Shown here: positions 51,362 to 52,762 of the stretch, in pieces
Numbering within the stretch: position 1 is the stretch's first letter
Layout: every line of letters starts with the position of its first letter
Virus record (IMG/VR): IMGVR_UViG_3300046791_000258
Location: 4,649-68,648 of that record
Strand: one strand, 5' to 3'
DNA length: 64,000 nucleotides
Source: a virus
The notes under the pieces: model-generated
What the model was told of the DNA's origin: nothing
Seen by the model: the letters and a program-made list of their open reading frames with translations, nothing else
Databases searched by the model: none
Position numbers and translations under genes: made by a program

Positions 51362-52496
51362 GTGAGCCTCGCCTTCACGCTGATCGACAAGAACAAGTCG
51401 CGCAAGTTCAAGCACGCGGGCTACGTCCAGCCGGTCCAGGATCGCTACGGCCTGCTGACCATGAAGCCGGGCGAGACCAAGTCGGTGCACGAGGAGAACG
51501 AGCGCGAGCGGATCGAGTACCGGCGCTGGGCCATCGTCAACTCGGGCACCTACTACCGCAAGACCGGGCGCACGACGCATCGCTTCTACACGCTGGTTGA
51601 TCGCAATGGCGCGCGCGCCACCATCACCTATGGCATCAGGAGCGGCGCGTGAGCCTGTTCGGTCGCGTGGTCGACTGGTGGCATGCCCGCCAGCGCGCGC
51701 TCGACATCGAGCTGCTGTGGCCGGTCTGTTGCGAGCAGGCCGCCGACCTCGACAGTGCCAAGACGGCGTTCGCAGTGCACGCCTTCAACGATCCGGCGTG
51801 GCTGCATCTCAGCCGCAAGCAGATCTTCATGATCATCGACAGCCTGCAATGTCCCGAGGGGAGTTTCCATGTCCAGGCGTGAGCGACGCTACGAGTGGCG
51901 ACGACTCGGCGGCGACTACCCCAACCCGGTGCTTGAGCTGCTGTGGTTCGTGTTCCTGCTTGCCGGCGGCTTCGGCTTCACCATGTTGCTCGCCTACAGC
52001 TTGCAGAGGATGATGACGCAATGACCGACGAGGTGATGCGCGACTGGGTGGCCGGCCACAACGACGAGGCGCTGCTCGCCGATGGCTTCGAGGCCGCGCT
52101 GATCGGTGTCGCCGAGCGCTGCAGCCAGCCGACGCTTGCGGTCTACGACGCCCAGAAGTGCGTCGAGATCCTGATGACCCGCGACGGCATGGACGCGACG
52201 GAGGCCTTGGAGTTCTTCACCTTCAACACGCTGGGCGCCTGGGTTGGTCCGATGACGCCGTTGTTCCTGTGGCGCTACGAAGCGTGATGCCGGGCGCCGG
52301 CTGGCCAGTGCCGCGGTTCGGCTATGGCGATCGGGTGATCATCCGGCCGCTCGACAACAACGTCCAGGCGCGGGTCGTCGACCTGCACTTCCTGGGCATG
52401 ATCGGCACCATCGAGTATGACGTGCGCTACTTCCTCGACGGCAAGGAGCACAAGATCCGGGTGTTCGAGGACGAGCTCAGGGAGGATCCGGGATGA
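51362..52496 (+). other. Small ORFs: 51362-51652, 51649-51882, 52021-52287, 52287-52496
   Basis: Coupled ORFs; 52021 carries the common phage motif ADGFEAALIG...EA.EFF.FN.LGAWVG..TP. Confidence 0.6.
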
Positions 52497-52762
52497 ACCG
52501 CAGGGTGAGCCGCCGCGGCTTCCTGGCCGGGCTGGTGGCGGCGCCTACCATCATCGGCATCGATCGTCGGATGAAGTTCTTCACGCCGCTGCGGCTGGTC
52601 TTGCCGCCGCACTTTGCGGTGATCAACCCGGGCCTGCTGATCGTGCCGCCCGAGCTGCAGGCCCAAGCGCAGCGGATGCTCGACTCGGCTCGGTTCCGCG
52701 AGCTGATCGAGCCCGGCTTGCGCGAGGTGTTTGCTTCCGCTTATGACCAGGAGGTCGCATGA
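52493..52762 (+). CDS. Twin-arginine small protein containing major-capsid-like segments
   Basis: SRRGFL Tat-like motif; PGLLIVPPELQAQA and DSARFRELIEPGLREVFASAYD resemble MCP segments. Confidence 0.65.
   Translation: MNRRVSRRGFLAGLVAAPTIIGIDRRMKFFTPLRLVLPPHFAVINPGLLIVPPELQAQAQRMLDSARFRELIEPGLREVFASAYDQEVA

Follow-up and report, generated by a model that had tools for sequence, protein, structure and literature searches.

The open reading frame ORF89 is a small phage gene that we lean towards reading as an accessory gene, in which a leader of the twin-arginine translocation (Tat) type, serving export or anchoring, precedes a passenger of about 45 mostly helical residues that duplicates part of the major capsid protein (MCP) of the same phage. 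The gene lies in a stretch of 64,000 bases (referred to here as the window) out of the 68,648 bases of a single virus record, IMGVR_UViG_3300046791_000258. The window has a G+C content of 65%, and the stretch from this soil phage was found in sequencing runs from soil and rhizosphere metagenomes. ORF89 occupies positions 52493..52762 of the plus strand, stop codon included, and encodes 89 amino acids, in agreement with the original prediction, which had been made from the letters of the window. That prediction described a miniature protein composed of a twin-arginine leader and MCP-derived sequence, a description borne out by BLASTP and by comparison of profiles.

It is very probable that ORF89 is a real gene. 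A GGAGG ribosome-binding site, read from the sequence, lies at 52481..52485 (plus strand), 7 nucleotides (nt) before the ATG, and the gene is translationally coupled on both sides, with ATGA overlaps joining it to the upstream stop codon and, at its own stop, to the downstream start. The G+C fraction at codon positions 1, 2 and 3 (0.69/0.44/0.87) is like that of other genes of the phage. A public gene call (P0001, 63 residues) begins at Met27, that is, at the internal ATG at 52571. Since this ATG has no ribosome-binding site and residues 5-26, which lie upstream of it, are conserved among homologues, the long form of 89 residues is taken to be the gene. No RNA dataset was present among the sequencing runs containing the stretch, and among the contigs of four runs from soil or rhizosphere, two of which may be sources of this DNA, there was no informative variation within ORF89.

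Capsid origin of the passenger

The 303-residue reading frame at 3285..4196 (plus strand) of the same window is the MCP gene, as it matches the Pfam family Phage_capsid_4 with an expect value (E) of 1.5e-11 and the Mu-like gpT family with E 1.3e-7. Its N-terminal arm (N-arm) is encoded at 3297-3365, and an LIV strand plus helix begins at 3855. Residues 63-85 of ORF89 (52679..52747, plus strand) align without gaps to MCP residues 5-27, with 11 of 23 positions identical (BLASTP 26.2 bits, E 8e-5, single comparison), which confirms the N-arm match noticed at the outset. The other capsid-like piece, residues 44-66 (52622..52690, plus strand), is an LIV strand-like stretch plus helix and aligns to MCP 191-213 with 9 of 23 identities (BLASTP E 0.018). 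The second alignment proposed originally was recovered, with weaker support than the first: residues 28-62 taken alone score 33 against the MCP, and 31 of 2000 shuffled sequences score as high. For the complete passenger (residues 28-89) the score is 53, reached by 1 of 2000 shuffles. The N-arm piece is thus well beyond chance and the second piece modestly so. The distance between the two pieces in the MCP, given earlier as about 190 residues, is actually 163 (from 27 to 191).

Moreover, a profile built from 14 members of the mini-protein family found the MCP as its best non-self match in the phage's own genome (E 1e-6; the next match, 0.039), in a search that covered 1148 open frames of at least 30 residues. 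Aligned to an MCP profile, which had been proposed as a check on the prediction, the family profile gave an hhalign value of 94.1% and E 1.2e-7 over 40 columns, corresponding to MCP residues 2-40. In each of 20 related virus records, the family profile had a single target, the MCP N-terminus (E 2.5e-7 to 2.2e-5), and the capsid profile in turn matched all 14 family members at the N-arm. These profile comparisons demonstrate homology between the predicted C-terminal helix of ORF89 and the capsid N-arm. ORF89 has no Pfam capsid match, and the capsid profile covers just positions 5-28 in it. The second piece reached phrog_371 (major head protein) with E 0.15, and four of its six weak tblastn matches (E 0.6 to 6) fell under annotated capsid or head genes; this piece appears weakly assignable to the capsid. 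For the passenger as a whole, there is little doubt about a capsid origin.

Nine N-arm residues (F10, R11, V14, E15, P16, F22, D23, G24 and Y26) are invariant among 22 aligned capsids, and the mini-protein family keeps five of these positions (F, R, E, P, F), so that the passenger probably presents the same face as the capsid N-arm. In the structure model of ORF89, two helices are found at residues 53-62 and 65-88, where the predicted local distance difference test score (pLDDT) is 75-89; the leader is unstructured, the mean pLDDT is 63 and the predicted template modelling score is 0.30. A model of the MCP (pLDDT 53), used for secondary structure and general fold, contains the N-arm helix at 7-29 and the LIV strand plus helix at 193-211. 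Foldseek related this low-confidence model to HK97-type shells (T5, HFTV1, encapsulins, HK97), and a sequence search of the PDB with the capsid profile gave just a chance match (E 0.47). With its 89 residues, ORF89 falls short of the full HK97 capsid fold, which comprises N-arm, E-loop, spine helix, and P and A domains in about 260-300 residues. It was also observed that five of the 22 aligned capsid homologues (P0077, P0079, P0082, P0118 and P0126; 339-348 residues) begin with about 40 extra residues ahead of the N-arm, forming a hydrophobic and partly conserved extension; a hydrophobic leader plus N-arm thus occurs on full-length capsid proteins too.

Order of the capsid pieces

The original prediction described the passenger as two permuted fragments. 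When family members were scored against the capsid profile (E-values being scaled to a set of 1148 sequences), a more specific arrangement emerged. In one member (P0136), MCP positions 270-298 are followed by 4 residues and then by positions 4-52, with independent E-values (i-E) of 9e-4 and 0.22. In three others (L001, P0133 and P0007), positions 271-296 (i-E 4e-4 to 1e-2) precede positions 9-40 (1.7e-8 to 8.5e-4). Two further members (P0010 and P0011) place positions 235-266 ahead of the remainder (i-E 0.005-0.015), and the protein at locus L005 has solely capsid positions 274-303, up to the very end of the capsid (i-E 0.021). Wherever a member has the N-arm, it stands last.

This order is best read as the putative head-to-tail junction of two capsid copies, trimmed on both sides, so that a C-terminal end is followed by an N-terminal start; simple fragment shuffling was dropped in favour of this model. 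Circular permutation could equally give an order in which the C-side comes first and the N-arm last. The multiple alignment places the LIV piece of ORF89 opposite the C-terminal capsid strands of its relatives, i.e. opposite the piece matching MCP 271-296. It may be either a diverged descendant of this C-terminal piece or a separate copy of MCP 191-213. Record G012, which contains the mini-protein L001, also holds a 263-residue frame (L038 1057..1845, plus strand) with capsid-like C-terminal pieces (profile positions 261-302, E 8.7e-5), located about 9 kilobases (kb) upstream of the mini-protein.

The twin-arginine leader

The leader comprises residues 1-27 (52493..52573, plus strand) and consists of the SRRGFL motif, a 15-residue stretch rich in Ala, Gly, Leu and Ile, a basic stretch and the conserved Met27. 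SRRGFL, which had been pointed out originally, is indeed present at residues 6-11 and agrees with the Tat consensus S/T-R-R-x-F-L-K. The following hydrophobic stretch also conforms to a Tat signal, since residues 9-23 are rich in Gly, Ala, Leu, Val and Ile, include Pro18 and have a mean Kyte-Doolittle value of about 2.0 (calculated by hand). Across the leaders of 22 proteins with unrelated tails, 13 columns are invariant. Among the 14 aligned relatives of ORF89, A17 and P18 are invariant and I20 and M27 conserved in at least 90%, and the resulting pattern, A-A-P-x-I-[IV] plus a Met about 8 residues later, is present in ORF89 and common to A6 and A7 members.

Searches with Tat models gave sub-threshold results. 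Among 22 leader-only relatives, 15 match Pfam TAT_signal at E up to 1, the best at 2.9e-4; the sole bit score printed is 13.7 for P0140, against a cut-off of 22.7. In a further comparison with a Tat model, one of ten relatives matched (E 0.007). With TIGR01409, the best relative scored 15.9 bits against a cut-off of 16.7. Language-model neighbours with values under 0.9 were Tat-signal families and serve as leads only. The leader has every sequence mark of a putative Tat signal except, in ORF89, the peptidase site, and it is likely that it really engages the Tat system or the membrane. A spanin or holin reading was dropped, as neither a partner lipoprotein nor a second membrane segment was found on reading the window and the frames of relatives. 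A reading of the conserved residues behind the leader as resembling a TonB box was likewise not adopted.

A constant leader with variable passengers

The leader is not restricted to capsid-like proteins. A profile search in which 8000 candidates were scored returned 43 proteins at E <=1e-3, most of which share just the leader and about 12 further conserved residues, and a single eight-residue pattern, searched over viral contigs, identified 23 loci from 28 matching stretches. The contigs with leader loci range from 4.8 to 322 kb in length and from 44 to 65% in G+C. At least 64 distinct small phage proteins carry the leader and end in varied C-termini. RR.[FLAS][LFIM] is present in 63 of 64, a fuller Tat-like motif in 53 and a V[RKH]A/E site in 46. 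N-arm modules of type A were found in 15 and of type B in 12 of the 64, both counts being biased upward by the query. The genes sit among small early or accessory genes, near replication genes or terminases, and several adjacent paralogues occur in jumbo contigs. As judged by its members' sequences, this is a polymorphic and widespread phage family with a constant N-terminal leader module and a variable passenger. No phage protein in which capsid pieces follow a twin-arginine leader was found described in the literature, judged on titles and abstracts.

Multiple leader paralogues per contig were seen at L024 (6001-6342 and 8894-9298), L008 (5998-7074) and L009 (6004-7535). One of the L024 passengers reads by eye like a phage tail-collar motif, and at L008 a neighbouring small gene has a different twin-arginine-like leader.

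The relationship between passenger and capsid was followed in separate lineages. In a complete genome of 62 kb (G001), the 87-residue leader protein is 57% identical to the N-terminus of its own 303-residue capsid homologue (E 0.004), with a second match to the same capsid about 90 residues further on (E 0.005). All 16 records of that clade contain a capsid N-terminus matched by a profile of 12 type-B proteins, which in six of them matched the second stretch as well. In a reciprocal test with 80 type-A and 80 type-B gpT-like capsids, the type-A mini-protein profile gave type-A capsids a median of 21.4 bits (79 of 80 reported) versus a median of 0.2 for type B (maximum 2.7), and the type-B profile gave type-B capsids a median of 21.6 bits (minimum 17.1) versus 1.8 for type A (maximum 4.2). 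The corresponding identities were 10 and 13 of 20 with the own clade versus 6 and 5 of 20 across clades. It had been supposed originally that the pieces came from a related phage's MCP; these reciprocal profiles point instead to a donor capsid of the phage's own clade and not to an outside lineage.

The third lineage is of the phiKZ type. In the jumbo contig G013 (322 kb), a 131-residue leader protein matches positions 566-623 of Pfam PhiKZ_MCP at 35.7 bits (cut-off 27) and is 44% identical over 52 residues to its own 732-residue phiKZ-type capsid (E 6e-11); PhiKZ_MCP matches occur in three of the 22 leader-only relatives. These comparisons show the predicted passengers matching the cognate capsid clade in three capsid lineages, two gpT-like and one phiKZ-type. 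Other tails have weak matches to lectin-like or baseplate models, or none.

Leaderless proteins with capsid-like segments were also encountered. In G037, a 120-residue frame (L236 1501..1860, minus strand) ends in a close copy of its own capsid N-arm (type-B profile 62-90, E 2.2e-5). In G013, a leaderless frame of 299 residues (L245 1312..2208, minus strand) matches PhiKZ_MCP 146-265 at 65 bits, and its N-terminal part resembles, by eye only, the Tad2/DUF2829 pattern. Another leaderless frame, of 243 residues (L244 1399..2127, minus strand, in G014), matches PhiKZ_MCP 152-317 at 46 bits.

Conservation and genomic surroundings

An exhaustive phmmer search of 1.8 billion representatives returned 12 matches at E <=1e-3. 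Nine of them are full-length small proteins of 88-151 residues with 37-57% identity to ORF89; the remaining three are its own 63-residue cluster and two giants, P0006 (1154 residues) and P0009 (6225 residues). P0006, which matched in 5 stretches, was rejected as a homologue, being judged by eye a repeat protein that matches through a short repeated stretch. A word-index search with ORF89 alone found solely its own cluster, the 63-residue call from Met27. Among 14 aligned members, R7, R8, A17, P18, F68, R69, P74, R77 and F80 are invariant.

ORF89 is preceded by a coupled small gene (52158..52496, plus strand; probable start near 52287) that is conserved beside ORF89 homologues and has no Pfam or PHROG match. 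Downstream follows a coupled gene for a helical protein of 156 residues (52759..53229, plus strand), with just weak coiled-coil-type matches in Pfam and PHROG and conserved synteny. The large terminase gene (53649..55349, plus strand) anchors the comparison with metagenome loci L002-L005. The order of small conserved gene, mini-protein, helical protein and terminase is kept in L002-L004, and in L005 the first two genes are swapped. Between the window and L002, identity is 88% for the terminase, 43% for the mini-protein and 45% for the helical protein; the upstream small gene is 72% identical to its L004 neighbour, and the L005 terminase is 60% identical to that of the window.

Within L002-L004, the ratio of non-synonymous to synonymous substitution rates (dN/dS) of the mini-protein is 0.04-0.35, calculated from three sequences only, and the best pair has 12 synonymous versus 2 non-synonymous changes. 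The original prediction had staked itself on a profile match and on conserved homologues of the same architecture with dN/dS <1, and both were found. Gene-like signals, synteny and purifying selection are thus shown in relatives. Synonymous divergence (dS) in the same loci is 0.13-0.30 for the mini-protein versus 0.01-0.03 for the terminase, about tenfold higher at a distance of 1 kb, which suggests local recombination or mosaicism. In all three loci (L002 163-609, L003 788-1234, L004 1522-1968), the mini-protein frame reads through the position of the ORF89 stop and shares about 190 nt with the downstream helical-protein gene.

Searches for a wider context were less productive. A DNA-level search of the phage collection gave no match, terminase patterns searched in viral contigs gave no relative, and a scan of genome contigs found 0 relatives among 111 stretches and thus no prophage context. 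The nearest named phages by terminase are Caulobacter phages; the compared region of Caulobacter phage RLK was too distant to inform. A PHROG scan of ten head-region proteins remained nearly empty, and scaffold and portal were not found there.

Upstream of ORF89, overlapping Phage_gp49_66-family (E 1.3e-12) and Tad2-like (E 8.3e-16) genes occupy 50687..51276 (plus strand). The end of the Tad2-like gene lies 1217 bases from the ORF89 start, in line with the earlier remark that two anti-defence-type genes are situated about 1.2 kb upstream. Additionally, positions 53248-53529 (plus strand) hold a 93-residue frame rich in Gly, Tyr, Pro and Gln, with a hydrophobic N-terminus, two terminal cysteines and no Pfam match; in its place, L002 has a different small Cys-rich frame with a signal-like start.

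Proposed mode of action

Through its leader, the protein would reach the inner membrane and the Tat receptor located there. In most relatives, a V-R-A / E-S site of the peptidase type would then allow release into the periplasm, and ORF89, which has I-G-I / D there, may remain anchored by its leader. The passenger would act by interface mimicry, offering the N-arm face to whatever normally recognizes that face. We tentatively suggest, with less than even confidence, that this partner comes from a conflict and not from the phage's own assembly; it would then be either a sensor of the host or part of a related phage that competes or superinfects. An extended and rather unlikely form of this proposal is that a mobile twin-arginine cassette, present in very different tailed phages, sends copies of the most conserved, immune-visible virion stretches to the Tat translocon or the periplasm and thereby constitutes a new class of conflict device. 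Such a device could pull capsid-recognizing host factors from the cytoplasm as Tat hitchhikers, or could meet internal proteins of superinfecting relatives in the periplasm and block their entry.

Several results weigh against an exported capsid mimic. The small-residue peptidase site, V-[RKH]-A / E in 46 of 64 relatives, is missing from ORF89, which reads I-G-I / D at the presumed cleavage position. It matches neither of the Tat models PF10518 (TAT_signal) and TIGR01409, and all relatives stay under the curated cut-offs. The fold model of ORF89 is poor outside residues 53-88. We know of no capsid protein that enters the periplasm, and of no periplasmic partner of a capsid N-arm, which makes mimicry hard to use after export. 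The sampling of passengers was biased, as the search profile contained the N-arm, and record G004 has the capsid family, yet its leader protein shows no capsid likeness by eye. The leaderless protein of G037 argues for a possible cytoplasmic use of the N-arm module and is the main point against an exclusively envelope-based view. Finally, none of 20 type-A records, 14 of which are at least 90% complete, gave the type-A profile a separate small-protein match, and none of 16 type-B records gave the type-B profile a full-length homologue, G037 with its 120-residue protein being among the latter. The mini-protein gene is therefore sporadic and dispensable.

Alternative explanations

The passenger could instead serve in the cytoplasm as a decoy, in which a copy of the most conserved capsid stretch binds a capsid-triggered host sensor and blocks or diverts it; a variant holds that the leader might drag the bound sensor to the membrane in the manner of Tat hitchhiker partners. 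The choice of the copied stretch fits this explanation, as it is the most conserved part of the capsid family (nine invariant N-arm residues in 22 capsids), as does the way in which passengers track the cognate capsid clade, and ORF89 lies 1.2 kb from the Tad2-like and Phage_gp49_66 genes. There are also precedents: CapRel is reported to be triggered directly by capsid proteins (PMC9712102), and some Tat substrates to be exported in heterodimers with one signal peptide (PMC10924467). A cytoplasmic decoy nevertheless sits badly with a leader that bears the marks of an export signal, which would be unneeded and would even work against it. Furthermore, a fragment that binds an abortive-infection sensor is expected to trigger it unless the activating part is absent, and no sensor is known for this capsid family. 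We regard this explanation as improbable.

No more probable is a docking module, in which the N-arm copy would attach to a neighbouring capsid subunit or to the scaffold and the protein would be built into, tethered to or regulate its own procapsid, or poison that of a competitor. The encapsulins, among the HK97-type shells matched by the capsid fold, load their cargo by way of short terminal peptides, which attach next to the N-terminal helix. Five of the nine capsid-invariant N-arm positions are retained, and the module stands C-terminally on unrelated carriers, namely the leader proteins and the leaderless 120-residue protein of G037. A SaPI protein is reported to compete with a phage scaffold for the capsid protein (PMC5644958). 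An export-marked leader would, however, take the protein out of the compartment in which heads are assembled; the genes sit among early or accessory genes and not in head modules, and most relatives with the same capsid do not have the gene.

A third explanation, which we consider very improbable, reverses the roles of the two parts. The leader would be the working part, occupying or jamming the Tat translocon or the membrane, and the tails would be filler supplied by recombination, with the capsid as a frequent donor. The conservation of the leader far above any passenger (13 invariant columns in 22 proteins with unrelated tails) would then be expected, and lectin-like, baseplate-like and unassigned tails, as well as several paralogues side by side in jumbo contigs, can be accommodated. 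Tat is reported to be essential in Caulobacter (PMC12911857), the host of the nearest named phages by terminase. Against this, the passenger is itself conserved: F68, R69, P74, R77 and F80 are invariant at 37-54% overall identity under purifying selection, and the same capsid region recurs in independent lineages.

A functionless, decaying remnant of a capsid-gene duplication might explain the resemblance to a trimmed junction of tandem capsid copies, the sporadic distribution and the lost stop in L002-L004, where the frame runs about 190 nt into the next gene, but this is hardly credible given the intact frame, strong ribosome-binding site and coupled starts of ORF89, conserved synteny, dN/dS well below 1, homologues that keep the same invariant residues at 37-57% identity, and the recurrence of the design in unrelated phages (G001 and G013).

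Significance and comparison with known systems

Should this design be functional, phages would be purposely producing separate parts of their own shell protein and directing them to a destination, which no described phage system does. This would bear on the evasion of capsid-sensing immunity or on exclusion among related phages, and would add a viral use of the Tat pathway. A constant leader with exchangeable passengers amounts to a natural experiment, in which the passengers mark virion stretches that matter in some interaction. For annotation, the family accounts for recurrent small 'hypothetical' genes whose weak capsid matches look like noise.

The leader family resembles Tat signal peptides (PF10518, TIGR01409): it has the S-R-R-x-F-L motif, a moderately hydrophobic, Ala/Gly-rich stretch in which a proline comes late, and a basic residue ahead of the cleavage region, and 46 of the 64 relatives add V-R-A / E. 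Its scores lie below the curated cut-offs. Unlike in ordinary signal peptides, the hydrophobic stretch and about 12 residues past the presumed cleavage site are near-invariant across very different phages. Unlike in Tat substrates, the passenger behind this putative export leader is taken from a virion protein of the cytoplasm and is not a periplasmic enzyme.

Among HK97-fold MCPs (PF25209, PF10124), the counterpart of the last 25 residues of ORF89 is the N-arm helix, to which they are homologous; its second stretch is similar to a strand plus helix from the capsid interior, or to the C-terminal strands in the case of relatives. ORF89 differs from these proteins in its length, 89 versus 303 residues, and in an order that puts the C-side piece first and the N-arm last; since E-loop, spine helix, P domain and A domain are all missing, it could not serve as a subunit of a shell.

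Capsid-derived triggers of abortive infection are known for CapRel (PMC9712102) and for Lit, which responds to the Gol peptide of T4 gp23. There, as in ORF89, a short conserved capsid stretch forms a stand-alone recognizable unit. The triggers of CapRel and Lit are parts of a full capsid protein sensed by the host, whereas ORF89 is a separate phage gene in which the capsid stretch stands behind an export-type leader.

T4 Spackle (PMC7677548) and T5 Llp are also small early or accessory phage proteins that are sent to the envelope and act on virion parts of incoming relatives; they depend on Sec or lipoprotein signals and do not copy virion proteins. SaPI CpmB, which opposes the scaffold of phage 80alpha (PMC5644958), is similarly a small protein that competes at the interface between scaffold and capsid N-arm. 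CpmB, however, is satellite-encoded and leaderless, and it is the scaffold's rival for the capsid protein, whereas ORF89 reproduces the capsid side of that interface.

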